A DNA stretch of 50,986 nt from Planctomycetota bacterium. GTDB lineage: Bacteria; Planctomycetota; Planctomycetia; Pirellulales; UBA1268. The notes below the pieces were generated by a model. That model did not search any database and was not told the origin of the DNA. It saw nothing but the letters and a program-made list of their open reading frames with translations. Shown one piece after another: positions 1,806-28,930 of the stretch. Position numbers and translations under genes: made by a program. The stretch lies in contig QWPN01000116.1 in the NCBI GenBank assembly GCA_003671185.1, positions 1-50,986 of the forward strand, given 5' to 3'. Each line of letters starts with the position of its first letter. Position 1 is the first letter of the stretch.

Positions 1806-2762
1806 TCAGAGCGATCCCGCGATGCCCAGCTGGAACGTCGTGGCGGGGCCGCTTTTGTCGGTGCCGGCGCCCCAGTTTCCGTAGATGGAAACGCGATCGT
1901 TCGGATACCAGATCCAGCCCGCCCCCACGACCGTCTGGGCGGCCATGCGTGGCAGCGCCGACTGATTCTGGAAGCCGTGCACGAAGAGGTGGAAGTCGTC
2001 GGTGACCTCCTTGGAGATCGACCACTGGATGACGTCCACCAGCGTGTAGCCCCCCTGTGTGGAGTCGCTCCCGACGCCCACGTTGTATTCGGCCGCCAGA
2101 CCCCAGAACAGCGTGTTGCGAAACAGCATGGTCAGGCCGGGCTGCGTGCCGGAGTCAAAGGCCGGTGATCCCCAGGGCGTCTGGATGTAGGCCTCGAAGC
2201 CCACGGCCGGCAGCCAGAGATCGCGGTTCTCCTCCCAAAAGTGAATCTTCGTGTCGAAGGTGAGCGGGGCGACGCCAGTGGTCTGGCCCATGCCGAGTCC
2301 GCCGGCCTGCCAGGTGAAGCCGTTGGAAAAGAGCCGGAACTCGACCCGGTCGGTGAGCCCCAGCCGCAGCAGGTACTCCGCGTTGTACATCTGTGGTTGC
2401 ACACCCGCGATCGCGCCGGTGAAGAACACCGGACTCGTTTCCAGGTACACCGCGCCACGCGGTATCGTGTCCGGGCTGTTGGGATAGTTGGCGGTGTCCG
2501 GCCCGGGCTCACGGATCGTGTGCGGCTCCCGCGACCGCTCGGGATCAAGGCCCTCCGGAAACACCTCGGCCAGGAACCGGGCCCAGGGATAGGGTGATTC
2601 AAACGCGGCGTCGTAGGGCTCTGCGCCGCTCGCGCAGGTGGTCGCTGCCGCTGCCAGCGCGAGCAGCGCCAGCACGATGCAACGGCCACAGATAATGGAG
2701 AGGCTAATTCGCCCGCGCACCGATCTCGATTCCCCGGGACGATGTCGCCCAAAGACTCGCAA
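1806..2762 (-). CDS. Exported putative outer-membrane beta-barrel 'transporter' (MetA-pathway/phenol degradation-like); true start probably internal
   Basis: Signal-like LALLALAAAAT; IREPGPDTANYPNSP motif; LLRLGLTDRVEFR; alternating aromatic beta-strand pattern. Confidence 0.55.
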   Translation of the reverse strand: MRVFGRHRPGESRSVRGRISLSIICGRCIVLALLALAAAATTCASGAEPYDAAFESPYPWARFLAEVFPEGLDPERSREPHTIREPGPDTANYPNSPDTIPRGAVYLETSPVFFTGAIAGVQPQMYNAEYLLRLGLTDRVEFRLFSNGFTWQAGGLGMGQTTGVAPLTFDTKIHFWEENRDLWLPAVGFEAYIQTPWGSPAFDSGTQPGLTMLFRNTLFWGLAAEYNVGVGSDSTQGGYTLVDVIQWSISKEVTDDFHLFVHGFQNQSALPRMAAQTVVGAGWIWYPNDRVSIYGNWGAGTDKSGPATTFQLGIAGSL

Positions 2763-10329: not shown

Positions 10330-12938
10330 GCGTTCCCCGCCACGTCCGTGCTGGGCCCGTCGCACTCGATGGCCGTCTGCGTGGCCGCCCAGGCCGCGAG
10401 GCGGTCGCGGAAAATCTTGGCGTTGTGACGGGCATCCACGGGAAATGAGGGATGGAAGAAGAAGCGCGTGATCGGTGCCGTGACGGGATCGCCTGCGCCG
10501 ATCACCCGGAGTTCACCGGCCAGCCGCCGCCGGGCCTCTGCCCCCAACGCGCGCGACCGCGGTTCGACGACCAGCGCCGGCCGCCCGCCCACGCCCACCA
10601 GGGCGGTGCGACTCACCTGCGGGTGACGATTGAAGACGTTCTCCACGGGCACGCTGTGGAAGATGCGTTCGGGCGTGACCACCAGGTGCGCCCGCCGGCC
10701 GCAGAAGTAGAGTTGTCCGCTGCCGTCGACGTAGCCCATGTCGCCCATGCGGTGCCAGATGCGCCCGCCGTCCTGCACCTTGCTGGCCGCTGTGGCCTCC
10801 GGACGCGCCAGGTATTCCTGGCTCACCGTCACGCCACTGACGATGATTTCGCCGATCGCGCGCTGCGGCACGTCGACGAGCGCCGCGGTGGGAGCCGACA
10901 AGGGCTCCACCACACGCAGCGACACTCCCGCGATGGCCCGGCCCACGGGAGTCCCCTCTTCGCCCGACAGGGCCAACACGGGCGGATCCTGCCGCAGATC
11001 GACGGCGGCAGCGACCGTGACGGGCAGGGCTTCGGTGGCGCCGTACGGTGTGAAACTCTCCGCCCCAGGGCAGGCGGCCGACACCAGGTCGATCGTGGCC
11101 TGCGAAACCGGCGCGCCGGCCATGAACACGCGGCGCAGCTGCGGCAAAGACGTGCCGGTCCGGCGGCAGTATTCGGCCAGCTTCGACCACAGCGTGGGAG
11201 AGCCGAACGATGTCTGGTTGCCGAGGTCGCGCATCACGCGGACCACCTGGCTGGGGTCGAGCGCCAGCGGTCGGCTGGGGTCGAGCGGCGGAAAGATGCT
11301 CCCCACACCGAGGGCGGCGGTGAACAGGCTGAATACTGGCAGCAGCGGCAGATCCTGGTCGCCGCGGCGAAAGCCGAACTGTCCGCGAAACACCGCCAGT
11401 TGCTCGGCCAGCATGCGATTGGTGAACACCACGCCCTTGGGCCGGCCGGTGGCACCGGACGTGAACGCCACGAGCGCCGGATCGTCGGCCTGCCGCGGCA
11501 CCGGGGCGGGCGGCCCGGCGGCGGGTTGCCCCAGGTCACGGGCCCGCGTCGCCCCGAACACGGGAAGGCGTCCGGCCACGACGCGGAAGCGCAATGACCG
11601 GAACAGTTCCGCGGCCTTGAGCCGCAGCAAATGGGCCCTGGGAACGCCGATGAAGCCGCTCGGCTCGGCCTCCTGCATGCAGGCCACCACGGCATCCACG
11701 CCCATCCCGGGGTCGATGAACACGGGCACCGCCCCGCGGCCCATCACGGCATAGCTGAGGGCCAGGAAGTCGACGCCCGGCGTCACGAGCATGATGACTC
11801 GCTCGGCCGCCCTCAGGCCGGCTGCGGCCAGGCCGCTCTCATAGGCGCTGATGCGGGCGGCGAGCGTCGCGAACGTGATAGCCTCGTAGCGCGGTGTGCG
11901 ACTCAGGCGCGGGAACGACACCTTCGTCACCGCCGACACCCATGGCGTGGCCGCGGCGGCCGCCCGCAGCGCCGCGTAGAGTCCCCCCGCGGGCGCGGCC
12001 AGTTCCAGGGCGGACTCGTCTCCTGCCGGTCTGGCGGCGGCCGTTCCCGCGCGCGCTTCCTGTGCCGAAGGCAGAAGAAAGTCCCGCACCTCGCCGATCA
12101 CCTGCGCCGGTGCATCCTCCAGCACGAGGTGCGACGCGTTGGGAATGCGCACGACCTCGGCCGCCGGAAAATGCGTCGCGAAGTGGCGCAGGATTTCCGC
12201 GTGAAAACACGGGTCCTTCATCCCCCAGATGATCTTCACGGGCGTGCCGGCCAGCATCGGCAGCCGGCCCGCCACGTCGTTCATCAGGGCCGTGGTCGGA
12301 TGGGATGGACGGAAGGGAATGTCGCGCACGAATCCCCAGATGGCCCGCCGGTTGGCCCGGGTGCGGTAGGGATGCCGGTAGGCCCGCACGACGTCGTCCG
12401 GCAGCGCATGCCGGGCGCCCATGGAGGTCAGCAGCCTGATGAACCACGGTGTGTCCTGCGTGAGCAGCCGGCCCACGACGGGCGACGCGGCCCGTCGGAT
12501 CATCCCGGGCAGCAGGGCCGTTTCGGTGAGCGCCGTGTTGAAGTACACCAGCCGCTCGACGTCCGCTGGACGGCGCACGGCCAGGCCCGTGCCCAGCGAA
12601 CCGCCCCAGTCGTGCATGACCAGCGAGAAGCGGCCCACGTCGAGGTGCGCCAGGAGTTCCTCGAGGTGACCGATGCGGTCCGCCGCCCGGAAGAACACGT
12701 CGTCGGGCTTGTCCGACAGACCGCAGCCCACGTGGTCGGGCACGATCACCCGGCAGTTGTGCCGCAGGGCGGCGATCAGATTGCGAAACAGAAACCCCCA
12801 GGTGGGATTGCCGTGCAGGCAGACGACGACCGGGCCGCGCCCCTCGTCCACGTAATGCATCCGGTATCCACCCCCCGCGCCAGTCCCGCGGCCGACCGTG
12901 GCGAACCGGGACTGGAAGGGATAAAGGACACCGTTCAT
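10326..12938 (-). CDS. oleBC: OleB-OleC fusion: haloalkane-dehalogenase-like beta-lactone decarboxylase + AMP-dependent beta-lactone synthetase
   Basis: N half HGNPTW, HDWGG, SHLVLED; C half IDPGMG, FTSGATGRPKG, TPYGATE, HRMGDMG, PVDARHNAKIFR. Confidence 0.88.
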   Translation of the reverse strand: MNGVLYPFQSRFATVGRGTGAGGGYRMHYVDEGRGPVVVCLHGNPTWGFLFRNLIAALRHNCRVIVPDHVGCGLSDKPDDVFFRAADRIGHLEELLAHLDVGRFSLVMHDWGGSLGTGLAVRRPADVERLVYFNTALTETALLPGMIRRAASPVVGRLLTQDTPWFIRLLTSMGARHALPDDVVRAYRHPYRTRANRRAIWGFVRDIPFRPSHPTTALMNDVAGRLPMLAGTPVKIIWGMKDPCFHAEILRHFATHFPAAEVVRIPNASHLVLEDAPAQVIGEVRDFLLPSAQEARAGTAAARPAGDESALELAAPAGGLYAALRAAAAATPWVSAVTKVSFPRLSRTPRYEAITFATLAARISAYESGLAAAGLRAAERVIMLVTPGVDFLALSYAVMGRGAVPVFIDPGMGVDAVVACMQEAEPSGFIGVPRAHLLRLKAAELFRSLRFRVVAGRLPVFGATRARDLGQPAAGPPAPVPRQADDPALVAFTSGATGRPKGVVFTNRMLAEQLAVFRGQFGFRRGDQDLPLLPVFSLFTAALGVGSIFPPLDPSRPLALDPSQVVRVMRDLGNQTSFGSPTLWSKLAEYCRRTGTSLPQLRRVFMAGAPVSQATIDLVSAACPGAESFTPYGATEALPVTVAAAVDLRQDPPVLALSGEEGTPVGRAIAGVSLRVVEPLSAPTAALVDVPQRAIGEIIVSGVTVSQEYLARPEATAASKVQDGGRIWHRMGDMGYVDGSGQLYFCGRRAHLVVTPERIFHSVPVENVFNRHPQVSRTALVGVGGRPALVVEPRSRALGAEARRRLAGELRVIGAGDPVTAPITRFFFHPSFPVDARHNAKIFRDRLAAWAATQTAIECDGPSTDVAGNA

Positions 12939-14037: not shown

Positions 14038-14363
14038 CAACTGCTCCTCGCTGCACCCGGCGCCCGACCGGCTGCGGCGATCTGCCGCAGCGGGGCGCCG
14101 GCCCGGCGCGACGTGCGTGTCGCTCGGGCGGACTTGATTCCGCGACGACAGAATAATCGATTTGCCGCGATCCAGCAGGGCGGCCCTTTTCGCCGTGGGG
14201 TCGGGCACCCGGAGCGTTTTTGGACACTGGCGGCTTTTGTTCCCGATTTGAACCGGGTTCAGGCCTTCGACCCCCCTGACGTGCCTACGGGCCGCAGCCT
14301 TGACCGCGACCACCCTTCGGCACCCGCGGTAGGATGTGGAATTCGCTCGCCCCCACCAAGCGC

Positions 14364-15548
14364 ATGAGCCAGTCGCACGTGTCCGCATCGCCGCCTGCTG
14401 AACCCTCCCCCACCGCTGCCGCCCCGCCGCGCGGCGACAAGGAGTCCCGCCCCTGGCCCTGGTGGGCGCCCCGACTCTGGCACGGCATGACGCTGGGCGA
14501 GTGGACGTCGCTCGCCGGCGAGCACCGCTGGCGGGCGAGCCCTAGCCGCTGGGGGCTGGTGGCGACGATCACGGCCGCCTCGGGCTTCAACTCCCTGGCC
14601 GCGAGACTCTGCGCGGCGGCCTATCGGCGCGAGCTTCGTTCGCCGCCCGAGACGCCGCCGCCGCTGTTCATCATCGGCCACTGGCGCTCGGGCACGACGC
14701 TGCTCCACGAACTGATGATGCTCGACGGGCGTTTCTGCTGCCCCAACTACTACCAGTGCTTCTCGCCCAATCACTTCCTACTCACCGAGCGGGTGCTGAC
14801 GCCGGCCCTGTCGTGGATTCTGCCCGCCAAGCGGCCGATGGACGACATGGCGAGCGCCTTCGACAAGCCGCAGGAGGACGAGTTCGCGCTCATGAACATG
14901 GGCGCGCCCTCGCCGTACCGGCGCATGGCCTTCCCCGTGACCAGCAGCCCGCATCCCGTGGCGCTCGACCTGACCACGCTGCCGGCGGCGGACCTGGATC
15001 GCTGGCGCGACACCCTGCGTCGGTTCCTGGCGATGCTGGCCGTGGCCGACCCGCGCCGCCCGGTGCTCAAGAGTCCGCCTCACACGGCCCGCGTCGGCGT
15101 GCTGGCGGAGATGTTTCCGCAGGCCCGGTTCCTGCACGTCGTCCGCGACCCCTTCGCCGTGTTCGGCTCCACGATGAAGCTCTGGCGTTCGCTGGACGCG
15201 GGCCAGGGCCTGCAGGTTGATCGAGGTGAGCGGCTCGAGCAGTATGTGTTCGAGTGCTTCGAGCAGATGTACGCCGCCTTCGAGCGGGATCGAGCCACGC
15301 TGGCGCCGGGGCGGCTGCACGAGGTCCGCTACGAGGAACTCGTGGCCGATCCCGTCGGCCAGATCGAGCGGGCCTACGACACGCTCGCGCTCGGCGATTT
15401 TTCTTCGATGCGCGAGGCCTTGGCCAAAGAGGCTGCCTCGCGGCAGAGTTACCGCGCCAGCACGTACAAGCACGACCCGCGGATTGTCGCGGAGATCTGC
15501 CGGCGCTGGCGACCCTTCATCGACCGTTACGGCTACACGCCGCCGTGA
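14364..15548 (+). CDS. PAPS-dependent sulfotransferase (Sulfotransfer_3 / Stf3-like)
   Basis: GHWRSGTTLLH (5'-PSB loop), RPMDDM, PQEDEFA, LKSPPHT, VRDP (3'-PB). Confidence 0.85.
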   Translation: MSQSHVSASPPAEPSPTAAAPPRGDKESRPWPWWAPRLWHGMTLGEWTSLAGEHRWRASPSRWGLVATITAASGFNSLAARLCAAAYRRELRSPPETPPPLFIIGHWRSGTTLLHELMMLDGRFCCPNYYQCFSPNHFLLTERVLTPALSWILPAKRPMDDMASAFDKPQEDEFALMNMGAPSPYRRMAFPVTSSPHPVALDLTTLPAADLDRWRDTLRRFLAMLAVADPRRPVLKSPPHTARVGVLAEMFPQARFLHVVRDPFAVFGSTMKLWRSLDAGQGLQVDRGERLEQYVFECFEQMYAAFERDRATLAPGRLHEVRYEELVADPVGQIERAYDTLALGDFSSMREALAKEAASRQSYRASTYKHDPRIVAEICRRWRPFIDRYGYTPP

Positions 15549-18737: not shown

Positions 18738-18906
18738 CGGCCCCGGACGGCGGCCCGCACGACCGCCACAACCGCCACGACCGGCGGCCACCGCACCGCG
18801 TCCATTCCCGGACTACGCCGCCAGAAGTGCGAACTACACTGGTCTTGAGGTCGGGCTCTTGCCTGGCTTCGACCCTCCGACCGCCACGCCCGTCACCGCA
18901 CTCGCC

Positions 18907-20388
18907 ATGAACACGATGCGCCTCCTCCGGCTCACCACGCTGGGGCCGATCTTTGGCCTCTTCGTGCTCGCGGTGCTCGCGTTCTTCAACCAGCGGGCCG
19001 TCAACCGGGCCCAGATCAACCGCTACGAGTCCTTCCGCCTGGCCCAGGAACTCCGCGCCAGTTCCGAGGATCTGACCCGCCTGGCCCGCACCTACGTGGT
19101 CACCGGCGACCCCGTCTACGAGGAGCAGTACTGGCATCTCCTCGACGTCCGCAACGGCGTCAAACCCCGGGCGGACGGCCGCACCGTGCCGCTGCGGACC
19201 CTGATGCAGGCCCAGGGCTTCAGCGTCGAGGAATTCGCCAAGCTCAAGGAGGCCGAGAACAACTCCAACGCACTGGTGACCACCGAGACGATCGCCATGA
19301 ACGCCGTCAAGGGCCAGTTCGACGACGGCCGCGGGGGCTACTCCCGCCGCGGGCCACCCGACCCCGAGTTGGCCCGCCGGATCATGCACGACCAGAAATA
19401 TCATGCCGACAAGGCGATCATCATGGGGCCGATCGCCGAGTTCGAGACGCTCCTCGACCGGCGCACCGAGGCGTTGGCAGCGGCGGGCCGGCGACGCGGC
19501 GATTTCGTGATGTCGATCGGCGTGCTGCTCGCGTCAGCCGCCGCCATCGCCACCTGGATCAGCCTCCGGCGCCACGGCAGCACGCTGCAGGCCGCCATCG
19601 GAGAATTGGCTTCCACGTCCGAATACGTGGCGGTGGGCGCCACCCAGATCGCCTCCTCCAGCCGCTATCTGGCCGAGGGGGCCGCGCAGCAGGTGGTCGC
19701 CCTCGAGGAGATCGCCATATCGGCACGGGAAATGGGCGGCATGGCCACCAGCAGCGCCCACAACACGCAGACCGTGAGTGATCTGGTCACGCGCGAGCAG
19801 CGGCACTTCCAGGACACCATGGCCCAGCTCGCCGACATGCTCCAGGCCATGGAGGAGATCGACGCGGCCAGCGACCGGATCTCGCGGATCAACAAGGTGA
19901 TCGATGAAATCGCCTTCCAGACCAACATCCTGGCCCTCAATGCGGCGGTCGAGGCGGCTCGGGCCGGAGAGGCCGGCCTCGGTTTCGCGGTGGTCGCCGA
20001 CGAGGTCCGCAATCTCGCCCAGCGCAGCGCCGAGGCTGCCCGGGAGACGGCAACGCTGATCGAGGAATCGATCACGCGCACGCGGGCGGGCCGCGGCAAG
20101 GTCGACCAGGTGACGAATGCCATCCGTGCCCTGGCCGGGCAGTCGGCGGAGGTGCAGTCGCTGGTGGAAAACGTGCGGCTCGGCAGCCGTGACCAGCACC
20201 AGGCGATCGACCGCGTCCGGGCGGCGATCGAGCGCATCGAACAGGTCTCCAAGCAGGCGGCCGCCGGGGCGACGCAGGGCTCGGCTGCAGCCGAGGAACT
20301 CACCGCCCAGGCAGGCGGGCTCCGGGACGTGGTGGCGACGCTGGAGAGGATGGTGGAGGTCGCCCGCCGACCGGCCGCCACCGGCTGA
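18907..20388 (+). CDS. Methyl-accepting chemotaxis protein
   Basis: Two TM helices around a sensory domain; signalling hairpin [37 protein letters not shown]. Confidence 0.92.
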
Positions 20389-20613: not shown

Positions 20614-20955
20614 ATGATTCGGGCAGCACACCCAGGCGTCGACGGGCTCGCCTCCATGTCCACCGTATGGGCCGTGATGGAGGCCGCCCGCGCCGGCGCG
20701 GCCGACGCATCCTGCGCCGCCCGTGGCTTTCTGCCCGCGGTCTCGCAGGCAGTCGGCCGGGGCGCGCATGTCACCGGTTTCACGATCGGCTACGCCGTCG
20801 CCTTTCCCGCCTGCCTCGTGGCCCGGCTCGTCCCCCGCAACAACGCCATCGTCTACGGTCTCACCGACGGTGGTCGCGCGGGTATCGATCTGGCACGGAC
20901 CACGACGCAACGCGAAGCCGAGCCGGTGCCCGCGCTCGCCGTCGTCACGGCCTGA
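20614..20955 (+). CDS. Small hypothetical membrane-associated protein, paralogue of 27929-28282
   Basis: GGGAG upstream; shares Y..(A/V)FP......VP.NN..V.GL.DG.RA with 27929-28282. Confidence 0.7.
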   Translation: MIRAAHPGVDGLASMSTVWAVMEAARAGAADASCAARGFLPAVSQAVGRGAHVTGFTIGYAVAFPACLVARLVPRNNAIVYGLTDGGRAGIDLARTTTQREAEPVPALAVVTA

Positions 20956-21002
20956 CCCCCCGCCCCACCCGTCCTCCACCCCATCTCCAGGAACCCGATC
21001 GC

Positions 21003-21260
21003 ATGACGCGCTCCGAATTAGGCTACTTCTGTGCAGGCGTCGCCGCCGGCGCTCTGGGCCACAAGTTCTATCCGCAGCTCAAAGACAAGCTTGCCCCGTA
21101 CATGGCCGGTGCCATGGTGTTCGCCCAGCAGGCGTTCGGCGACGCCATGAAGGACGCCATGGCCACCGTTGACGCCATGCACCGGGCGGCCGAACCGGTG
21201 GGGGCGGAGTTCTTCACGGGCAAGACCACGGAAGCGTCTTCTGGCGAAGCCGCAGCCTGA
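21003..21260 (+). CDS. Small protein with N-terminal GxxxG hydrophobic helix and amphipathic tail (FezA-like architecture)
   Basis: MTRSELGYFCAGVAAGALG..., 85 aa, AGGA upstream, directly before the ATPase. Confidence 0.65.
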   Translation: MTRSELGYFCAGVAAGALGHKFYPQLKDKLAPYMAGAMVFAQQAFGDAMKDAMATVDAMHRAAEPVGAEFFTGKTTEASSGEAAA

Positions 21261-21300
21261 TTCACCGGCCCGCATCACGCCCATCACCCGGAGGCCGCTC

Positions 21301-23937
21301 ATGGATGTCCGCGTCACGTTTCCCCGGGAAGGCGTCATCCACGTCGAGGGGCCTGTGTTCGCCGCGGCGGACAGTGCGGCCTGTCGGCAGTTTCTGCGCT
21401 GCGCCTTCGCGGTTGCCGAGATCGACGACGTCACGCTCACCGGCGGCCGATCGCCCCGCGCCGAGCTCCGCTTTTCGCCGCGGCGCGGCAGCGCTCGCCA
21501 AATCCTCGATCGGGTGGCACGGCTGCTGGGAGCCGCCGCAAACCCCGATGATGCGACACCCCGGGCGGTCGCGGAGATCCAGATCCCGGTGATCGCTCGC
21601 GACCGTCGGGGCGCCGTGCGGGTGCAGCGTCACGGCGAGCTGGTGTCAGGCTGGCGCGTGGTTCGCGAATCGCTGGGAACCGTGAAGCTCTCCCATCCGC
21701 TGATCCACAGGCGGGGCGAGGTTGCCGAAGCCATTGAACGGGAACTGATGAGTGTGCTGGGGGTCGACAAGTACTCCACCAACACGTTCTTCTCCACGGT
21801 CACGGTCGACTACGACCCGCGGCAACTGTCCCGCTCGCAGGTGGTCGAGATTCTCGACGGCGTCCTGGCCGGGAACCCGATCCCCTCCAAGCTCGACAAG
21901 CTCGACCTGTCGATGGCCCTCTGCACGGTGTCGCTGCCGCTCGCCGCCGTCGCCCAGTTCGCCTTTCCTCCCCTCCTGCCGGCGGCGGCGCTGCTCTTCG
22001 CCTACACGTCAGTGTCCACGTTTGCATCCGCCAAGGAACTGCTCGTCAAGGAACGCCGGCTGGGCTGCGACGTGCTCGACGCCGTCGTCGTCGTCGGCTG
22101 CCTGTCCACCATGCAGATCCTGCCCGGCGCCGTGCTGATGTGGTGCCTGGCGCTGGGCCGCATGCTCGTCAAGCGGACAGAGGATCGCTCCAAGAAGATG
22201 CTGCTCAACGTGTTCGGCAAGCAGCCCCGCTTCGTGTGGGTCGTGCACGAGGGTGTCGAGGTGCAGATCCCCCTGGCGCAACTCAACCAGGGCGACGTGA
22301 TCGTGGTCAACACCGGCGACGTGATGCCCGTAGACGGCGTCATCGCCGAGGGTTTCGCGATGATCGATCAGCACGCGCTCACCGGCGAGAGCACCCCGGC
22401 CGAAAAAGGTCCGGGCGACCGCGTCTTCGCCTCCACCGTGCTCGTGGCCGGCAAGGTGTTCGTGGCGGTGGAGTCCAGCGGTACGGATACGGCCAGTGCC
22501 AAGATCGGCAAGATCCTGGCCGACACGGCCGGCTACAAACTGGCCCGGCAGCACGCCGGGGAACGGCTGGCCGACACGGCCGTGATCCCCATGCTGGGCC
22601 TCGGCGCCCTGGGCTTCGCCGCCATGGGCCCGGCCGGCGCCGTGGCGATCGTCAACTGCGACCTGGGCACCGGAATCCGCATGGCGGCGCCGCTGGCGAT
22701 GCTCAGCTCGCTCGCGCTGTGCGCCAGCAAGGGCATCCTCATCAAGGACGGCCGTGCCCTCGATCTCATGAACGAGATCGACACCGTACTCTTCGACAAG
22801 ACCGGGACGCTGACCCGCGAGCGGCCCGAGGTGGGGGTGGTCCATGCCTGCCAGCCCTGGGGAGAGAATGCCATCCTCCGCTATGCGGCGGCGGCCGAGC
22901 AGAAGTTTCACCACCCGATCGCGCTGGCGATCCTGCACGAGGCCAACGATCGCGGACTGGAACTGCCCCCCGTCGAGGAGAGCGAACTGAAGGTCGGCTT
23001 CGGCATCAGCGTGCGGGTCGACGGCCGGCTGATCAGGGTCGGCAGCCGTCGTTTCATCGAGCAGGAGGGGCTCACCATCGGTGCCGACGTGGCCGCCGCA
23101 CTGGAACGCGCCCATGCCCTGGGCAACACCATGGTGCTGGTAGCCGTCGACGACACGCTCGGCGGGGCGATCGAACTGCAGGCTTCTGTGCGGCCGGAGG
23201 TGGCCGAGATCGTGGCCGGACTGCGGGCCCGCGGCATCCGTCACCTGGCGATCATTTCCGGCGATCACGAGGCTCCCACGAAGCGGCTTGCCGAGCAGCT
23301 GGGCATGGACCGCTACTTCGCCCAGGTGTTGCCGGCTGACAAAGCCGACTACGTCGCCAAGCTGCAGGCCGAGGGTCGCAAAGTGTGCTTCGTCGGTGAC
23401 GGCATCAACGATTCGATCGCGCTCAAGAAGGCGAATGTGTCGATCTCGCTGCGTGGTGCCTCGACGATCGCCACCGACACGGCTCACATTGTGTTCCTCG
23501 ACGAGGGCCTTTCGCACCTCTGCGAGCTGCGCGACATCGCCCGCGAGCTGCACGCCAATGTGCGGCGCAGCTGGCACATGATCGTGGCGCCGAACGTCGC
23601 CTGCGTGGCGGGCGTGTTCACACTCGGCTTCGGCATCTATGCCAGCGTGTTCTTCAACAACATCACGGCGCTGGCGGCCGTGGCCAACGGCCTGTGGCCG
23701 ATGCGCAAGGTGGCCCAAAATGAGGCTCGGCGCAAGCAACTGATCGCCGCAGCCGTGCAGGCTGACGCAGCGAAGGACGGCGGCGCCGCATCGGAGCCGA
23801 GGGTGGCGGATGCGACCAGCGCCGCCCCGCTGCCGCCCGTCGCCGGCGGCGACGGCGCGTCGACCGCCACGCCCGCCGTCGGGAACGGATTCGGTGTGGG
23901 CGTGCCGTCGCTGACGCAGGAAGCATCGCCGGTATGA
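21301..23937 (+). CDS. Heavy-metal P1B-type ATPase without CPC motif (P1B-6/FezB-FezH-like), with N-terminal HMA-like domains
   Basis: TGES, DKTGT, HHP, SGD and GDGIND intact; TM motif NCDLGTG and late TM FNNIT instead of CPC; no CxxC metal-binding motif in the N-terminal domains. Confidence 0.88.
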   Translation: MDVRVTFPREGVIHVEGPVFAAADSAACRQFLRCAFAVAEIDDVTLTGGRSPRAELRFSPRRGSARQILDRVARLLGAAANPDDATPRAVAEIQIPVIARDRRGAVRVQRHGELVSGWRVVRESLGTVKLSHPLIHRRGEVAEAIERELMSVLGVDKYSTNTFFSTVTVDYDPRQLSRSQVVEILDGVLAGNPIPSKLDKLDLSMALCTVSLPLAAVAQFAFPPLLPAAALLFAYTSVSTFASAKELLVKERRLGCDVLDAVVVVGCLSTMQILPGAVLMWCLALGRMLVKRTEDRSKKMLLNVFGKQPRFVWVVHEGVEVQIPLAQLNQGDVIVVNTGDVMPVDGVIAEGFAMIDQHALTGESTPAEKGPGDRVFASTVLVAGKVFVAVESSGTDTASAKIGKILADTAGYKLARQHAGERLADTAVIPMLGLGALGFAAMGPAGAVAIVNCDLGTGIRMAAPLAMLSSLALCASKGILIKDGRALDLMNEIDTVLFDKTGTLTRERPEVGVVHACQPWGENAILRYAAAAEQKFHHPIALAILHEANDRGLELPPVEESELKVGFGISVRVDGRLIRVGSRRFIEQEGLTIGADVAAALERAHALGNTMVLVAVDDTLGGAIELQASVRPEVAEIVAGLRARGIRHLAIISGDHEAPTKRLAEQLGMDRYFAQVLPADKADYVAKLQAEGRKVCFVGDGINDSIALKKANVSISLRGASTIATDTAHIVFLDEGLSHLCELRDIARELHANVRRSWHMIVAPNVACVAGVFTLGFGIYASVFFNNITALAAVANGLWPMRKVAQNEARRKQLIAAAVQADAAKDGGAASEPRVADATSAAPLPPVAGGDGASTATPAVGNGFGVGVPSLTQEASPV

Positions 23938-26375
23938 TTTCCGGCGCGGCGAACGTCGTGCTTCATCCTGCCGGCAGGTGCATCCGCGTCCAGGCGGCCG
24001 CCCTCGGCCGCGGACCGGAGCGGCGTTCCGACAGGATCCGATTCCTGGCACACGTCATGTCCTGCGCCGCGGTGGAGCGGCTCACACTGGACGCCCGGGC
24101 ATCGACGGCCACCATCCACCTCCGCGTCGATGGCACAGACTTTCGCGACGCGGTCGCCTCCCTGGCGGCTGCCGTGAGGGGCCGCGCGGAGGCCGCGGAA
24201 CTGCCCCGCGACTGTCTCGATAACGACCGGCTCTCGATCCAGCGGATCGGGGGCCGCCTCACCACCTGGCAGGTGGGCTCCTCCGGGCCGCATCGGCTGC
24301 AATTCCGCCACCCCCGCCTGCGTCACGACCGCGTCCTGGCCCGCGGCGTCGAACGGTTGGTGGTAGCAGTGCCCGGTGTGCGGAATGCGCGGCTCTCGAC
24401 GTGGTCAAGCGATCTCCTTGTGGAGTTCGACGAGGCCCGGCTGGAAGCGGACACGCTCCTGGCCGTCCTACAGCACGCCGTCGAGACCCGCGCCGGATCC
24501 GAGTCACCATCCGCCCGCTGGCAGATGCTGGGCAAATCGGCGACGCTGGGAGTCGCGGCACTCACCGACTTCGTCTTCCCCGTGCTCGCTCCGCTCAGCG
24601 CCACGCTGCTGGTGGGCACGAACCTGGGCACCATCGCCGCCACGGTAGGCGACCTGCGCAGGCGACGCGTGGGGATGGCCACGATCGCCACCGCGATCAT
24701 CGTGGGAACGCTGGCGACGGGGCAGTATCTGGCGTCGGGTATCATGGCCTGGTCGTTCGCCTTCTGGAGGCTGCGGCACCGCCGCGACGTCGAAGCCGAA
24801 CGTCTCCTGCTGCTCGAAGATGCCGTGCCGCTGCCGGCCTGCTCGCTGATCGATCGAGCCGACGGCACGCTGGCCGTGCAGCCCGTCGACACGCTTCATG
24901 ATGGCGACCACGTGCGGCTCGAGACCTGGGACGTGGTGCCCGCGGACATGCTCGTCGTGGAGGGCCGCGGCGTCGTCGACGAGCGCTGCGCGACCGGGGT
25001 CGCGGGAGCCCGGGCGGTCGGCCCCGACGACCGTGTCCAGGCCGGTGCCGTCGTCCTTGGCGGCCGTCTTCTGGGCGCGATCGCCAGCCAGCGGGAACCC
25101 CGGGTGATGCGGGCGGCCCGGCTGCTGGCCGCAGCCACGCAGACGCAAGCCGGCCGCTTCGCTCCCACGCGGCAGGCCGAGGAATTCGTGGAGCAGCTTG
25201 CCGGCCCCACGCTGGCCACGGCGGGGATCGGCCTGCTGGTGGGGGACGTGACCACGGCCGTCGCCATCATGCGACCCGACTACGCCAGCGCCGAGGCGAT
25301 GGCGGTGTCTTTCGAAGACATCGACGCGGTGGCCTGCGGAGTGGCCGCGGGATGCATCGTCACCGCACCCCGGGCCCTCGACGCCCTGGCCGGCGTGGAC
25401 ACGGTCCTGCTCGTCGATCATCCCTCTCTCCACGAGCGCCGGTTGGAGGTGACGCGGATCCAGCCCAGGCCCGGACCGCACGCCGATGCGGAATTGGAGC
25501 CGCTGCGCTGGGCCGCCAGCCTGGCCCGCCACCTTGCCGATCCGCGCCGCGAGGCCTTGGCGGCACTGGCCGCGGCTCGGGGCCTGATCCTCACCGACAT
25601 CGCCCCGGACTCCTTCGGCGACGAGGCCGGGCTGCGTGTTGTGCATCGGCGGGCCGACCGCACTCTGGCCCTGGTCGACACGTCCGGCGCGGGTGCCGCC
25701 GGGCCTCTCGTACTCCACCTCGACGGCGGAACATGGGCCACGTTCGAATTCAGTCCCGGCCTCGCACGGCGGGCATGCGGAGCCCTCGACCGGATGCGGG
25801 AGATCAGGCCCCTGCACGTGATCCTCGCCCAGCCGGCCGCCGCCACCGACACCCTATCCGAGGAACTGCACTGCGACGATCGCATCGACCTGGGCAGCGA
25901 CGTGGCCGGCACCCTGGTCGACGCCGTGGGCCGCCTGCAAGCCGAGGGGCGTCGCGTCGCCGTCGTAGGGCCGCCCGGCCTGATCGCCCCGTGCCGGGGC
26001 GTGGCTACCGTCACGCTGGCCACCGGCTTCGATGCGGACAGCCAGGGACAGGAGGCCGACATTTACAGCCTGGCGGGCGACATCGCCTGCCTCGCCGACC
26101 TGCTCCTGGCCGCGGCACTCCGCCGCAAACGACTGGCGCTGTCGCGGAAGATGAGCATTCTTCCCAACATGGCATGCATCGTGGGGGCCTTCTTCTTCGG
26201 GTTTACGAGCCTGGTGTCGGCCATCGTCAGCAACGTCGGCACGATGGGCATCTACCGCCGTGCCAGCGGCACGCTCCACCACAACCACCGCACACACTGG
26301 CTGAAGTCTCGCTCCAGCGCCGCGGCTCGCCGGGTCAGGCTGGCCGGTTCGCCGTCCCGGGGGGCCACGCCATGA
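23934..26375 (+). CDS. Degenerate P1B-ATPase paralogue lacking catalytic motifs (pseudo-ATPase)
   Basis: Collinear with the previous gene (VVPAD, PDYASA, LPNMAC...SNVGT), but TGES>TGVA, FDKTGT>LVDHPS, GDGIND>GPPGLI. Uninterrupted 813-aa ORF. Confidence 0.8.
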   Translation: MISGAANVVLHPAGRCIRVQAAALGRGPERRSDRIRFLAHVMSCAAVERLTLDARASTATIHLRVDGTDFRDAVASLAAAVRGRAEAAELPRDCLDNDRLSIQRIGGRLTTWQVGSSGPHRLQFRHPRLRHDRVLARGVERLVVAVPGVRNARLSTWSSDLLVEFDEARLEADTLLAVLQHAVETRAGSESPSARWQMLGKSATLGVAALTDFVFPVLAPLSATLLVGTNLGTIAATVGDLRRRRVGMATIATAIIVGTLATGQYLASGIMAWSFAFWRLRHRRDVEAERLLLLEDAVPLPACSLIDRADGTLAVQPVDTLHDGDHVRLETWDVVPADMLVVEGRGVVDERCATGVAGARAVGPDDRVQAGAVVLGGRLLGAIASQREPRVMRAARLLAAATQTQAGRFAPTRQAEEFVEQLAGPTLATAGIGLLVGDVTTAVAIMRPDYASAEAMAVSFEDIDAVACGVAAGCIVTAPRALDALAGVDTVLLVDHPSLHERRLEVTRIQPRPGPHADAELEPLRWAASLARHLADPRREALAALAAARGLILTDIAPDSFGDEAGLRVVHRRADRTLALVDTSGAGAAGPLVLHLDGGTWATFEFSPGLARRACGALDRMREIRPLHVILAQPAAATDTLSEELHCDDRIDLGSDVAGTLVDAVGRLQAEGRRVAVVGPPGLIAPCRGVATVTLATGFDADSQGQEADIYSLAGDIACLADLLLAAALRRKRLALSRKMSILPNMACIVGAFFFGFTSLVSAIVSNVGTMGIYRRASGTLHHNHRTHWLKSRSSAAARRVRLAGSPSRGATP

Positions 26376-26719
26376 CCGAGGACCTCCCGCCCACGCCGCC
26401 CGTGCAGCGCTCGCCCACCGAACGAGAGGTCGAGGAACGGCTCCAGCGGCTGCCGCCCGAGATGGGTGCGATGCTGCTCACGATCGGCATTTTCGGGATG
26501 ATCCTCCCAGGGATGGTGGGCACGCCCGCGCTGCTGGCCGGCGGGCTGCTGCTCTGGCCGAGGGGCTTCCGTGGTGTCGACCGTTGGCTGCGCCGGCGCT
26601 GCCCGCGATTGCACGGGCAGGGCATCGTCCAGTTGCTCCGCTACCTTGACGACATGGAGCGACGGTATCCTTCAACCCGACACGCCAACCTTGCACCGCC
26701 GTCGGAGGCATCCCCATGA
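26372..26719 (+). CDS. Small membrane protein (Gly/Pro-rich hydrophobic hairpin)
   Basis: LPPEMGAMLLTIGIFGMILPGMVGTPALLAGGLLLWP; ATGA overlaps at both ends. Confidence 0.75.
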   Translation: MTEDLPPTPPVQRSPTEREVEERLQRLPPEMGAMLLTIGIFGMILPGMVGTPALLAGGLLLWPRGFRGVDRWLRRRCPRLHGQGIVQLLRYLDDMERRYPSTRHANLAPPSEASP

Positions 26720-27768
26720 CGACTGACACCCTCACAGCCACGCTCGCTCCCTACGAGGCGGCTCAGATCCGCGAGATCGCCACCTGGAAGAGCATGCTGC
26801 CCAGCCGGATCTCGCAGGCCGTCGACGTGGTGGCCTCGCCGCTGACCTGGGTCGTGGGGCACGTCGTGCCACGCTCGGCGGTGACGAGGATCGTCGCCTC
26901 GATGGAGACCGTCGCGGCCCAGGCCGACATTCCCGCCGAGGTGGCCCGGATCGCCGGCGTGGCCGGGGTGTCCGACCTCGGCAGCCGAACACTCGAGGAG
27001 TGCGACCGCCTGGCATGCATGTTCAGCGCCCGGGCCGAGCGATTGGCGCTCGTCGAGGGGACGGTCTTCTCGCTGGGCGGCCCCTTCGTACACGTGCCGC
27101 AGCAATTGATCGCTTCGCTGCGGTCGGTGACACGCATCGGCCACTGCTACGGCTACACCCTCGAGCAACCGCAGGATCGTGCCCTGGTGATCGACGTGCT
27201 GGAAATCGCGATGCTGCCCGACCCGGCCGAGCGCATCCAGGTCGTGGAGGCGCTGCACGCGGCCATGGATGCCCATGCCGACTCGCTTGGTGACGCCCAG
27301 GATGTGCTCTATCACGCCACGCGCACGATGTTCGCCGAGGAGGCCCTCGACCTGGTGCCGGTCGTGGGCACGGCCGTGTCGTTCCTGTTCGACAATCAGT
27401 TCATGCACGCCGTCGACGTGGCGGCCCGCCGCATCTTCCAGGAACGCTGGCTGCGCGACCGCGGCCTTGTCACTTCGATACCCCCGGCGGCCGTCGCCGC
27501 CCGCAGCAGCAGCATCGGCGAGGTCGGCCTGGCGATCGGCCAGTGCCTGTATTGCATCGGCGCCGTGGCGGGTTTCGCCGCCACCGCGCCCTGCCGGCTG
27601 GTCCAGCACGCAGTGGGGCAACCAGGAAGTCCGGTCGCCGCGGGCGCCCGCCACGGGTCCGATCGGGCCGTTCACGATGCTCGGGAGTTCATGGATGGCC
27701 TGCGGAGTTCGTTCGCGGAAGCCGAGATGGACGAGTTCGCAACGGCCGCTCCAGCGGCCGGAACATGA
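26716..27768 (+). CDS. EcsC family protein with C-terminal extension
   Basis: YEAAQIREIATWK, IGHCYGY, LVPVVGTAV...NQFM...FQERWLRD resemble EcsC-family motifs. Confidence 0.65.
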   Translation: MTTDTLTATLAPYEAAQIREIATWKSMLPSRISQAVDVVASPLTWVVGHVVPRSAVTRIVASMETVAAQADIPAEVARIAGVAGVSDLGSRTLEECDRLACMFSARAERLALVEGTVFSLGGPFVHVPQQLIASLRSVTRIGHCYGYTLEQPQDRALVIDVLEIAMLPDPAERIQVVEALHAAMDAHADSLGDAQDVLYHATRTMFAEEALDLVPVVGTAVSFLFDNQFMHAVDVAARRIFQERWLRDRGLVTSIPPAAVAARSSSIGEVGLAIGQCLYCIGAVAGFAATAPCRLVQHAVGQPGSPVAAGARHGSDRAVHDAREFMDGLRSSFAEAEMDEFATAAPAAGT

Positions 27769-27928
27769 GTTTTTTGCGAGTCCTGGAATCCTTGTCCTGA
27801 TTGTTTGCATCGCCACACCGTGGCGACTAGGATCGGTCGCGAGTCCAGTCAGGTAGCGGGGCGGTCGCGACCTGTGCCGGCCCGAATGCTGAAGTCATCC
27901 ATACCCCCCTGCAACGGAAGCCATACTC

Positions 27929-28282
27929 ATGACCCACGAGACTGCCGCTGACGCGACGGCAAACGCCAACCACGACCCCCTGAATGCCGTCGCCGATGCG
28001 ATGCAGGCTGCCGCCGCCACCGTGTCGGACGGAGCCAACGCGGCCCGTCAGGCCGCCGAGAAGGCGCTGCCCTCCGTGGGCCTGTTCGCCAACCGTTTCC
28101 TCTACACGTCCTCCTACGCCGTTTCCTACGGCGTCGTGTTCCCGCTGGCACTCATCGCGCTCTCCGTGCCCCACAACAATCCGTTCGTGCACGGCTTGGT
28201 CGACGGTTCGCGGGCCGCCCGCGACAAGGTCGACGCGCTGCTGAGCGGGAAGCCGGCCACCAGCGAAGTGCCGGCCACCTGA
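27929..28282 (+). CDS. Small hypothetical membrane-associated protein, paralogue of 20614-20955
   Basis: SYGVVFPLALIALSVPHNNPFVHGLVDGSRA; strong GC3 codon bias. Confidence 0.78.
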   Translation: MTHETAADATANANHDPLNAVADAMQAAAATVSDGANAARQAAEKALPSVGLFANRFLYTSSYAVSYGVVFPLALIALSVPHNNPFVHGLVDGSRAARDKVDALLSGKPATSEVPAT

Positions 28283-28319
28283 CGTCCGCTGAACCGGTGG
28301 CTCTCCGGGAGCGCTTCGG

Positions 28320-28787
28320 ATGGAGCTCGCTCTGGAGGATCATTTCGGTGCCAGCCGCAGCCTGGTTGAATTGACGGGGCGCGTGGTGGTGCTTGTGTAT
28401 GCCGAGCGTCGCGGCGCATCGGCGGCGCTGCGCCTGGGACGGTCCTTGCACGAGCGATTCACAGCCGCTACCGGCGATCCGGCTGTGAGCGTCATTCCCG
28501 TCGCCTGCCTGGCCGAGGTGCCGCGTCTCTTCCACGGCATGGCGCGCAGCCTGCTGCGCCGCGAATCACCCCACGTCGTGGTGTGGATCGATTTCCATGG
28601 CGCCTTGCAGCGTGCGGTTGGCTTGAAGCCGAACGTGGCCAACGTGGCCATCGTCGACCCTCACGGCCGGCTCGACGGAGTGCATGCCGGAGATTTCGCT
28701 CAGCCCTTCCTGGAGGCGGTGGCCGCGGACATCGAACGCTGCCGTCGGGGAACGGAGATCACACCATGCCCGCGCGGTTCTGGCTGA
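28320..28787 (+). CDS. Hypothetical protein, possible redox-inactive thioredoxin/AhpC-like fold
   Basis: LEDHFG...L.GRVVVLVY, VWIDFHG, AIVDPHGR pattern; no CxxC. Confidence 0.5.
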   Translation: MELALEDHFGASRSLVELTGRVVVLVYAERRGASAALRLGRSLHERFTAATGDPAVSVIPVACLAEVPRLFHGMARSLLRRESPHVVVWIDFHGALQRAVGLKPNVANVAIVDPHGRLDGVHAGDFAQPFLEAVAADIERCRRGTEITPCPRGSG

Positions 28788-28930
28788 TCCTGGCGCTTTC
28801 CATCCTGGCCGGCATGGCGCTGCTGCTCCCCGAGCCGACCGGCAGGAAGCCCTCGTCCTCGGTCCCCTGGCGGGGGCAGATCAAGCCGCCGCCCCCCCCG
28901 CCGATCCCGCCCGGACCGCAGGAGTCCTAA
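28766..28930 (+). CDS. Small protein with N-terminal hydrophobic helix and poly-Pro tail
   Basis: MPARFWLILALSILAGMALLL...KPPPPPPIPPGP, 54 aa. Confidence 0.4.
   Translation: MPARFWLILALSILAGMALLLPEPTGRKPSSSVPWRGQIKPPPPPPIPPGPQES

Follow-up and report, generated by a model that had tools for sequence, protein, structure and literature searches.

Among heavy-metal P1B-type ATPases, the FezB pumps of ferrosome (fez) gene clusters are the closest described relatives of the system examined here. Passages of a preprint on ferrosomes define FezB and the P1B-6 group by the motifs D[Y/F]SCA and HNxxT, report an N-terminal arginine-rich (R-rich) motif common to FezB, related pumps (CtpC), FezC, and the second ATPase FezH, and describe fez clusters with Feo and Fur genes in carriers that are mostly strict or facultative anaerobes. 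In passages of a review, SCA is assigned to P1B-6 and CSC to P1B-7, and N-X18-H-N-X-(S/T) is given as the P1B-6 signature. Here we analyze a locus of nine open reading frames (ORFs), g1 to g9, at positions 20614-28930 of a 50,986-nucleotide stretch of DNA from a Planctomycetota bacterium of the order Pirellulales (GenBank assembly GCA_003671185.1, contig QWPN01000116.1, positions 1 to 50,986 of the forward strand; hereafter the window). An initial annotation had proposed the locus as a divergent fez-like system. Genes g1 to g7 (20614-28282) are an operon-like module, which we class as a Fez-related system of P1B-6 type in which the ion site is changed and a dead paralogue of the pump has been added.

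Results

An active ATPase with exchanged ion-site ligands

The catalytically intact ATPase of the module is encoded by g3 (21301-23937, plus strand), whose 878 amino acids include the DKTGT, TGES, GDGIND, and HP motifs of an active P-type enzyme. It passes the general heavy-metal model of NCBIfam (TIGR01525, 408 bits against a cut-off of 346) and falls below the cut-offs of the subfamily models TIGR01511 and TIGR01512 (Cu-type, 282 against 397 bits; Cd-type, 302 against 313.5). Its best solved match is Archaeoglobus fulgidus CopA (E = 5.9e-67), the C-P-C columns of which are occupied in g3 by L-G-T, inside VNCDLGTGIRMAAP. Transmembrane helix (TM) 4 reads N452-C-D454-L-G-T-G-I-R-M-A-A-P464, with NCDLGTG at the CPC site and neither CPC nor SPC present, TM5 has P764-N765, and TM6 has N786-N787 in the last-helix sequence FFNNITA. 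The description of g3 in the initial annotation as a CPC-less P1B-like ATPase without N-terminal CxxC was thus correct, and its catalytic motifs are intact.

A species-level scan with one genome per species gave 314 relatives of g3, and the loci of the best 80 of the 314 were examined. Locus ORFs were called anew in high-GC DNA and clustered, and shadow ORFs were discarded; many loci are in metagenome-assembled genomes (MAGs) with uncertain labels. Motif counts refer to 82 family ATPases, from 81 loci and the window. Gene counts refer to the 81 loci besides the window, take as denominators the loci with enough flank, and depend on contig ends. GDGxND is present in 82 of the 82 ATPases and TGES in 78. 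TM4 follows N-[S/C]-D-[F/L/M]-G-T-G-I-R-M-A-A-P in 82/82, the set having been selected on GTGIRMAAP, TM5 has P-N, and the N-N of TM6 is found in 80/82. At the second TM4 position Ser occurs in 63 of the 82 proteins and Cys in 19, all 19 of them window-type members; the Cys of NCDLGTG, to which attention had been drawn earlier, is therefore not required and not a conserved ligand.

In a MAFFT alignment, from which all residue correspondences were taken, D454 corresponds to the Asp of DYSCA, T457 to its Cys, R460 to its Lys, and P464 to its Pro, and N786 and N787 correspond to the His and Asn of HNGTT, and every family row shown has Asn in the column of the His. The register in which FNNIT had been read as HNxxT was off by one, since it is N786 that aligns with the His. 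In the family, the scaffold of FezB is thus retained and both soft ligands are swapped. The ion site of g3 consists of Asp454 with Asn452, Asn765, Asn786, and Asn787, an all-oxygen/amide set. Long inserts of Asn-Gly-His (NGH) repeats between the two N-terminal domains (columns 100-290 of the family alignment, A3) occur in 5/82 family ATPases (e.g., P0032, P0034, and P0047) and not in g3; His-rich inserts were dropped as a family trait because only five members have them.

Phylogenetic position of the family

Reference records were obtained by tblastn with g3 against PLSDB. ATPases with DYSCA and HNGTT were found on a Vibrio sp. THAF190c replicon (L117) and on Azospirillum brasilense p3 (L126), and a split DFICG/HNAAT pump on a Priestia megaterium plasmid (L123). 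Cyanobacterial plasmid pumps (Gloeothece, Nostoc) have LDFGTGIRVSVP and NNG[S/T]A, a Deinococcus pump has LDFASGIR and SHGTT, and a mobilisable Methylobacterium plasmid encodes a pump 46% identical to g3. A careful tree of 34 rows (IQ-TREE) and a quick tree of 61 rows (SH-aLRT support) were constructed with Escherichia coli CopA, ZntA, and KdpB, the last as out-group, and 20-33 other P1B pumps from relatives.

In the 34-row tree, the FezB-type pair, the cyanobacterial/Deinococcus/DYGTG group, the pseudo-ATPases described below, and the g3 family form one clade (100/100). The same clade is found in the 61-row tree with an SH-aLRT of 100, and it is separate from the clades of E. coli CopA, of ZntA and SPC pumps, of CSC pumps, and of CPS pumps. 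Grouping of g3 with canonical Cu, Zn, or Co exporters, which the initial annotation had named as an outcome that would speak against its proposal, is thus not seen. Canonical P1B-1, P1B-2, and P1B-4 pumps (CopA, ZntA, SPC-type) have the same overall fold and catalytic motifs, whereas g3 has no CPC or SPC and no Pro at that TM4 site, and the two kinds fall in separate clades in both trees. Within the joint clade the FezB-type pair branches first as its own clade (100/99), and the g3 family lies in the sister clade (100/97), not nested among FezB-type proteins. The tree and the alignment indicate that g3 shares its stock with FezB (P1B-6) by descent, and equally that it fails membership of FezB/P1B-6 by definition, on its TM4 and TM6 motifs and on nesting.

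The module resembles the Fez system in the superclade of its ATPase, in the TM4 spacing D-x4-[L/I]-[K/R]-x3-P, in the TM5 Asn and the second TM6 Asn, in an HMA_2-type N-terminal domain (weakly matched in g3 itself) with an alternating basic beta-strand, and in having small GxxxG proteins in the cluster. It differs in that S-C-A has become G-T-G and H-N has become N-N in a sister lineage, in that a dead ATPase, the sTM family of small single-pass proteins, a DUF454-like hairpin, and EcsC are added, in having cax and NRAMP genes as neighbors instead of Feo and Fur, and in being known from genes alone. The proposal of a divergent fez-like system stands as regards the clade shared with FezB-type pumps, the TM4 register, HMA_2, and synteny; it does not extend to the D[Y/F]SCA and HNxxT motifs, which are lacking, and the branch is a sister one. 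A true fez operon, in which the ATPase would load Fe2+ into a lipid-bounded iron-phosphate store and small proteins would shape the organelle, seems to us very unlikely. The superclade common with DYSCA/HNGTT ATPases, the TM4 register, and the Lys or Arg kept at +6 from the Asp are in its favor; against it, both defining motifs fail (Cys to Thr, His to Asn) and the family branches beside the FezB-type pair, not within it. That ferrosome carriers are, in the preprint passages, mostly strict or facultative anaerobes also counts against this reading. Further evidence on it is given with the domains and neighbors concerned.

No report on the g3 family, its pseudo-ATPase, or the module was found in the literature searched; the list of related P1B-ATPases with an R-rich motif in the ferrosome paper may already include the family. 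Two other groups of pumps were noted. A relative with VDYGTGIRVAAP in TM4 lies less than 8 kb from a family ATPase in two alphaproteobacterial loci (L058, 2100-4330, and L094) and groups with the Deinococcus and cyanobacterial pumps. In another P1B pump of the window's own genome (contig C101, about 11150-12844) and in relatives L103, L107, L108, and L113, ACPS replaces the TM4 CPC, and these pumps form a separate long-branched clade.

A dead paralogue retains the polar membrane residues

Downstream of g3, the gene g4 (23934-26375, plus strand) encodes a protein of 813 amino acids that is 27% identical to g3 across 716 columns (E = 6e-41). It has LVDHPS in place of DKTGT, ATGVA in place of TGES, and VGPPGL in place of GDGxND, and therefore cannot work as a P-type ATPase; what had been listed as a second, dead ATPase-like gene is a degenerate paralogue of g3 that has lost all three catalytic motifs. 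Among 47 such pseudo-ATPases, DKTG is present in 0, GDGxND in 0, and TGES in 2, and the membrane residues are nearly all in place: the TM4 Asp and the TM5 Pro in 47, the TM5 Asn and the TM6 Asn in 46, and the TM5 Cys in 45. The pseudo-ATPases are the sister clade of the active family in the 34-row tree (100/100), on branches several times longer. Loss of the catalytic motifs with retention of the polar membrane residues argues for selection for something that occurs in the membrane, and it is mainly this pattern that leads us to regard the pseudo-ATPase as a working, non-catalytic half of a machine. No precedent for an active/dead pair among bacterial P-type ATPases was found in a limited literature search, which returned P4-ATPase papers only.

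A shortened degenerate P-type ATPase was also seen on the Gloeothece verrucosa PCC 7822 plasmid (L119, 11819-13387), where a 522-amino acid "HMA2 domain-containing protein" without DKTGT is encoded three genes after an active relative, near DUF1345, DUF5132, and DUF1269 genes. In the 61-row tree its very long branch falls among the cyanobacterial pumps (SH-aLRT 99), so that it may be a second dead paralogue of independent origin.

The N-terminal domain links Fez pumps to CoBaHMA proteins

The N-terminal regions of g3 and g4, which lack CxxC, match HMA_2 (PF19991) weakly, at 18.3 and 21.3 bits against a cut-off of 30, and 11 of 14 family ATPases match it at E ≤ 1e-3 (best, 5.1e-11). The same domain is found in the Vibrio FezB-type pump (49 bits), in fez-like small proteins of Vibrio and Azospirillum (38.5, 31.6, and 26.8 bits), in the Deinococcus pump (53.6 bits), and in the Gloeothece pump (33.4 bits) and its 522-amino acid degenerate neighbor (38.9 bits); the Priestia fez-like cluster encodes HMA2-domain proteins by NCBI annotation. 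In the alignment, H-x-x-P-G-R-x-R-x-K of FezB-type proteins stands opposite P-G-R-L-K-L-K-N of the g3 family, with the basic beta-1 strand of g3 itself degenerate (GTVKLSHP). The HMA_2 domain and the fit of the beta-1 PGRxRxK to the Fez R-rich motif would also be expected of a ferrosome operon.

Passages of a preprint on Microcystis equate Pfam HMA_2 with CoBaHMA, a domain whose first description was in calcyanin, the protein that marks intracellular amorphous CaCO3 (iACC). From the alignment, the Fez R-rich motif appears to correspond to the basic strand beta-1 of CoBaHMA, an equation not found in the literature examined. A survey of CoBaHMA proteins by Gaschignard et al. in 2024 reportedly has membrane transport proteins among its architectures and may already list a CoBaHMA-ATPase combination.

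A conserved module with metal-transport neighbors

Among 40 relatives of the genome, g3 has orthologues in two: a member of the same genus (76% identity) and a member of a different family within the order (59%). Both orthologues sit in syntenic clusters; the remaining matches are ordinary P1B pumps with ≤34% identity. In a collection of 5.8 billion proteins, the best 120 matches of g3 are all at least 60% identical. The best 80 of the 314 relatives, which are 57-84% identical, come from Planctomycetota, Methylococcaceae, Alphaproteobacteria, and an Acidobacteriaceae MAG. Cultured carriers are Aquisphaera insulae, Tautonia sociabilis, Methylolobus aquaticus, and Methylotetracoccus oryzae. An sTM gene lies directly upstream of the ATPase in 64/71 loci, the pseudo-ATPase downstream in 43/59, and the hairpin gene is present in 48/55, so the neighbors are syntenic across phyla, as a fez-like system had been expected to show. 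Most other loci have between ATPase and pseudo-ATPase members of three further families, c7 (about 190 amino acids, 44/68 loci), c8 (about 69 amino acids, 45/68), and c18 (103 amino acids). Homologues of g2 were found in 20/82 loci by tblastn and in 29 loci by clustering. EcsC occurs in 12/53 loci, the Methylococcaceae ones at 28-31% identity, and is absent from the same-genus cluster (G002), and g8 occurs in 5/82. These recurrence counts assign g1 to g7 to the module, mark g8 as a passenger confined to its lineage, and leave g9 doubtful.

Several features of the sampled genomes were recorded alongside. Some MAGs have a full module and a solitary family ATPase on another contig (L068 with L056; L090 with L048), and the solitary ATPases (L064, L068, L079, and L090) form their own subclade. 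Loci L023, L025, L026, and L027, titled Candidatus Kuenenia or Chitinophagaceae, have clusters 71-76% identical to the window type, and these titles may reflect binning or labeling and not the true host. By word index, near-identical DNA (at least half of the sampled words) was found in nine runs labeled as freshwater, sediment, drinking-water, or lake metagenomes, among them the probable source, a lead on habitat only.

Metal-transport genes recur around the module. A cax-type Ca2+/H+ exchanger gene lies within 10 kb of the ATPase, often co-oriented and adjacent, in 16 of 41 long-flank loci, and its products show 30-52% identity to the cax that is annotated next to the related ATPase of Nostoc. 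An NRAMP gene is a neighbor in 5/41 such loci. NRAMP proteins can import Fe2+, which counts toward a ferrosome; against it, no Feo, Fur, or DtxR was among the annotated recurrent clusters (only part of the recurrent neighbor clusters was annotated), the window lacks a protein of the FezC type (HMA plus two TM helices), and the fez-like Azospirillum cluster adjoins an iron ABC transporter. The DUF1345 family occurs in 6 loci, and HMA_2/DUF454 fusion proteins in 5 related loci, one related-locus protein having a full DUF454 domain (85.7 bits) fused to its N-terminal region.

These neighbors recall the ccyA (calcyanin) neighborhood, which according to the Microcystis preprint passages holds CoBaHMA-DUF454, DUF5132, cax, DUF1269, and a protein with CoBaHMA as its single domain. 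Co-expression with ccyA is stated there for cax, DUF5132, and DUF454, and no P-type ATPase near ccyA is named in those passages. Alike are HMA_2, the DUF454-type hairpin, and the small TM-plus-helix proteins of the module, and the cax, DUF1345, and DUF1269 genes of related loci. Different are the window, which has neither cax nor DUF5132, and the loci, in which no calcyanin/GlyZip gene was noticed, no aimed search for calcyanin having been made. Closest in arrangement is the Gloeothece plasmid, where the related ATPase, DUF1345, DUF5132, a 40-amino acid ORF, and the degenerate HMA2 protein are consecutive and DUF1269 follows after about 4 kb; in Nostoc, cax is 2 kb from the related pump. The Nostoc flagelliforme plasmid pNFSY07 (L124) encodes two P-type ATPases, one of them with LDFGTG/NNGTA; an annotated cax lies 2 kb downstream, and after cax come two hypothetical ORFs that resemble a split second cax.

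These associations would fit a calcium-handling or calcium-mineral toolkit, iACC-like or acidocalcisome-like, in which the pump and cax would act together at an internal membrane, either to load or buffer Ca2+ or to exchange H+. The cax counts, the HMA_2/DUF454 fusions, the partly co-expressed ccyA neighborhood, the Gloeothece and Nostoc plasmids, and the iACC reported in Methylococcaceae in passages of a preprint all point this way. We nevertheless think this reading quite unlikely: no calcyanin gene was identified in any locus (no search aimed at it was made), the ATPase is present in M. oryzae, which the same passages use as a ccyA-free out-group, the linked type of cax is missing from the window and its assembled genome, and the ion site has a single carboxylate.

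Small and accessory proteins of the module

The first gene, g1 (20614-20955, plus strand), and g7 (27929-28282, plus strand) encode small single-pass proteins, the copy upstream of the ATPase and a second copy of the sTM family, with one hydrophobic segment each (residues 55-73 and 62-80). They are 42% identical over 65 amino acids (E = 2e-14), so g7 is the paralogue of the first gene that it had been taken for. After the hydrophobic segment both have the invariant P-x2-N-x4-G-x3-G-x2-A; in the sTM alignment (A4), P81, N84, G89, G93, and A96 (g7 numbering) are invariant. The sTM proteins from other phyla are closer to g7 than to g1. In atlas searches, the neighbors of g7 are all unnamed "hypothetical protein" clusters, and a c7 protein likewise matches unnamed clusters only. 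Neither Pfam nor NCBIfam has a family for g1, g2, g7, and g9, or for representatives of the c7, c8, c18, sTM, GxxxG, hairpin, and putative outer-membrane protein (OMP) clusters.

The second gene, g2 (21003-21260, plus strand), encodes a small protein with a Gly/Ala-rich N-terminal segment followed by an Ala/Asp/Met-rich helix. Of its earlier description as a small GxxxG membrane protein, the motif held, G12xxxG16 being invariant across 20 homologues, whereas a hydropathy scan (Kyte-Doolittle ≥ 1.4) called no TM segment; that g2 is a membrane protein is plausible. Profiles of the small proteins were compared with 40 proteins from fez-like and cyanobacterial clusters (Z=40). The expected kinship with fez-like proteins was found for g2, weakly, with a 74-amino acid Priestia cluster protein (E = 1.1e-5) and a Vibrio one (E = 3.9e-4), a further point for the ferrosome reading. 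It was not found for the others: sTM, hairpin, c7, c8, c18, and g8 profiles gave nothing below E 0.01 among these proteins, the best EcsC match was at E 0.013, and the dead ATPase matched no fez-like cluster protein.

The hairpin gene g5 (26372-26719, plus strand) encodes a helical-hairpin membrane protein that is in part DUF454/YbaN-like. Its AlphaFold2 model (mean predicted local distance difference test score, pLDDT, of 73) has a hairpin of helices 29-44 and 50-61 and then C-terminal helices, read as cytoplasmic, and thereby agrees with the hydrophobic hairpin read from the sequence. The DUF454 match reaches 16.2 bits against a cut-off of 35.1 and covers profile positions 7-50 only, below what family membership requires. 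The accessory gene g6 (26716-27768, plus strand) encodes an EcsC-family protein, as had been noted (PF12787, 97.2 bits against a cut-off of 30.4, E = 1.5e-27, profile positions 2-240 of 240), with a C-terminal hydrophobic segment at 270-288. By hhalign there is no relation between c7 and g8, GxxxG and c8, sTM and GxxxG, or hairpin and c8; the idea that g8 replaces c7 in the window's clade was rejected on this lack of similarity.

The build of g2, with an N-terminal hydrophobic segment and then an Ala/Glu/Asp-rich helix, is one that we take to be PacL-like, and it raises another reading of the module, as a CtpC-PacL-type ("effluxosome") efflux platform of the cytoplasmic membrane in which the small proteins are scaffolds or chaperones that stabilise the pump and no organelle is formed. 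Passages of the review put CtpC with the P1B-6 group, co-expressed with the small membrane protein PacL, and the ferrosome preprint passages give CtpC an R-rich motif. The Mycobacterium tuberculosis CtpC-PacL1 pair is alike in that a small membrane partner is encoded beside a P1B-6-like ATPase; it differs in that CtpC keeps the CPC motif, according to the same passages, and has no dead paralogue. The patchy occurrence of the family, like that of accessory resistance genes (2/40 relatives), and a distant relative on the mobilisable Methylobacterium plasmid also accord with efflux. Set against this, no DUF1490/PacL match in Pfam was found for g1, g2, g5, and g7 at E ≤ 0.1 (the 20 g2 homologues match neither this nor any other Pfam family at E ≤ 1), the window's flanks contain no metal-sensing regulator of the MerR or ArsR type, and the sole recurrent regulator noted is an AraC-like ORF in 6 loci, named from its sequence and not scanned. 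A simple efflux pump also leaves the conserved dead paralogue with its ion-site residues unexplained, and an importer neighbor (NRAMP) fits storage better than detoxification. We consider this reading unlikely, if arguable.

Layout of the locus and its flanks

The nine ORFs at 20614-28930 are co-oriented on the plus strand, with intergenic gaps of 47, 40, 160, and 37 bases and ATGA start/stop overlaps at 23934 (g3/g4), 26372 (g4/g5), and 26716 (g5/g6), an arrangement that ORF calls and sequence bear out as first drawn. Their GC content at third codon positions is 0.76-0.95, which fits coding frames in a window of 66-72% GC. The last two ORFs are peripheral. The thioredoxin-like ORF of the initial annotation, g8 (28320-28787, plus strand), does have a thioredoxin fold in its predicted structure (pLDDT 86, predicted TM-score 0.81), and Foldseek matches it to ResA/TlpA/DsbE-type thiol-disulfide oxidoreductases (E = 1e-7, TM-score 0.63-0.70); it has no CxxC and is therefore probably no redox enzyme. 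It is lineage-restricted, with only 9 homologues among 5.8 billion clusters, and a paralogue of about 30% identity was seen elsewhere in the same genome (contig C77, about 14163-14618). The poly-Pro peptide g9 (28766-28930, plus strand), with a hydrophobic N-terminus and a 22-base overlap with g8, is present as an ORF; as a gene it is doubtful, having no homologue in 82 related loci. It may be no gene, and probably lies outside the module.

The flanks are unrelated to the module: the upstream side encodes a chemoreceptor (18859-20388), a sulfotransferase, a KAS-III-like protein, and a DUF1559 protein of a kind typical of planctomycetes, and the downstream side an esterase-like protein and RNase III. 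Rfam at gathering thresholds found no metal-naming riboswitch in the window and four loci, with 6S RNA and tRNA elsewhere as its only hits, and a promoter and terminator scan of the window gave nothing over the shuffled expectation. Of the 41 long-flank loci, 11 have, no more than 10 kb from the ATPase, a member of a putative OMP family, so labeled from a look at the sequence only. The distant homologue of this family in the window (1806-2762, minus strand) is 45-56% identical by tblastn to the cluster-23 proteins of loci L015, L021, and L026, and at 18 kb from the module is weakly linked to it.

Discussion

With little better than even confidence, we interpret the module as a heteromeric pump of Fez-like design and not a ferrosome operon, with a hard divalent cation (Ca2+ or Mn2+) as its substrate. 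The engine would be g3, an ATP-driven pump in which the Cys and His of FezB have been exchanged for Thr and Asn. Its partner g4 would be an ancient duplicate that neither is phosphorylated nor hydrolyzes ATP, and keeps the membrane Asp and Asn. We infer a complex of g3 and g4 with g1, g7, g2, g5, and, in the window's lineage, EcsC, that would export a hard (non-thiophilic) divalent cation from the cytoplasm at the expense of ATP, export being the direction in which all P1B pumps transport. As substrates, Ca2+ and Mn2+ are our best guesses: cax points to Ca2+, and both NRAMP and the Asp/Asn chemistry point to Mn2+. We regard Cu, Zn, Cd, and Fe as less likely. The Fez precedent and the importer neighbors favor a store as destination, and the CtpC-PacL precedent and the patchy, partly plasmid-borne distribution favor an efflux platform. 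We lean slightly toward an internal membrane-bounded store or buffer rather than transport across the cytoplasmic membrane.

Several observations weigh against this interpretation. There is a single invariant carboxylate in the ion site, against two or three in known Ca2+ pumps, which makes Ca2+ a less than obvious fit; a monovalent ion or H+ is a possible substrate. The N-terminal NGH repeats of 5/82 members would fit Ni, Zn, or Co better, and neither a regulator nor a riboswitch names the metal, which tells against any firm call of the substrate. The linked type of cax was not found in the window's own genome, which is 85% complete; the only Na_Ca_ex gene of the assembly is unlinked, and its identity is 21% with the Nostoc cax (over 283 residues) and at most about 31% with linked cax proteins. 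The pseudo-ATPase was not found in 16 of the 59 loci with enough flank, several of which are alphaproteobacterial with the order ATPase-c7-c8-hairpin, and a heteromer is therefore not obligatory for the whole ATPase family. The window's clade lacks c18, c7, and c8, three genes present in most other loci. The FezB-type position in the tree is defined by two references picked by motif (DYSCA/HNGTT), with the studied FezB, FezH, and CtpC outside the tree, and no experiment or expression datum was found for any family member.

A bolder proposal, which we advance as speculative and think unlikely, is that the module builds or feeds a membrane-bounded store of hard cations (Ca/Mn), and that in its heteromeric P-type ATPase the dead paralogue is the half that conducts or gates the ion. 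Ferrosome, calcyanin neighborhood, and module would then be three branches of one ancient toolkit for intracellular metal compartments, in which a pump of P1B-6 type is combined with a CoBaHMA domain and a helical hairpin.

The P1B-6 ATPases are the least understood of the heavy-metal pumps, and ferrosomes are their sole studied role. The present analysis defines a large and strongly conserved sister family of FezB, with at least 57% identity across four phyla among the best 80 of 314 relatives, in which the soft ligands of the ion site have given way to oxygen ligands and the pump usually adjoins a dead copy of itself. It also ties together two fields, the Fez R-rich motif and the CoBaHMA domain of calcium-carbonate-forming cyanobacteria, between which the literature examined contains no such connection. 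With cultured carriers in Aquisphaera, Tautonia, Methylolobus, and Methylotetracoccus, the substrate and localization of this system are directly testable.

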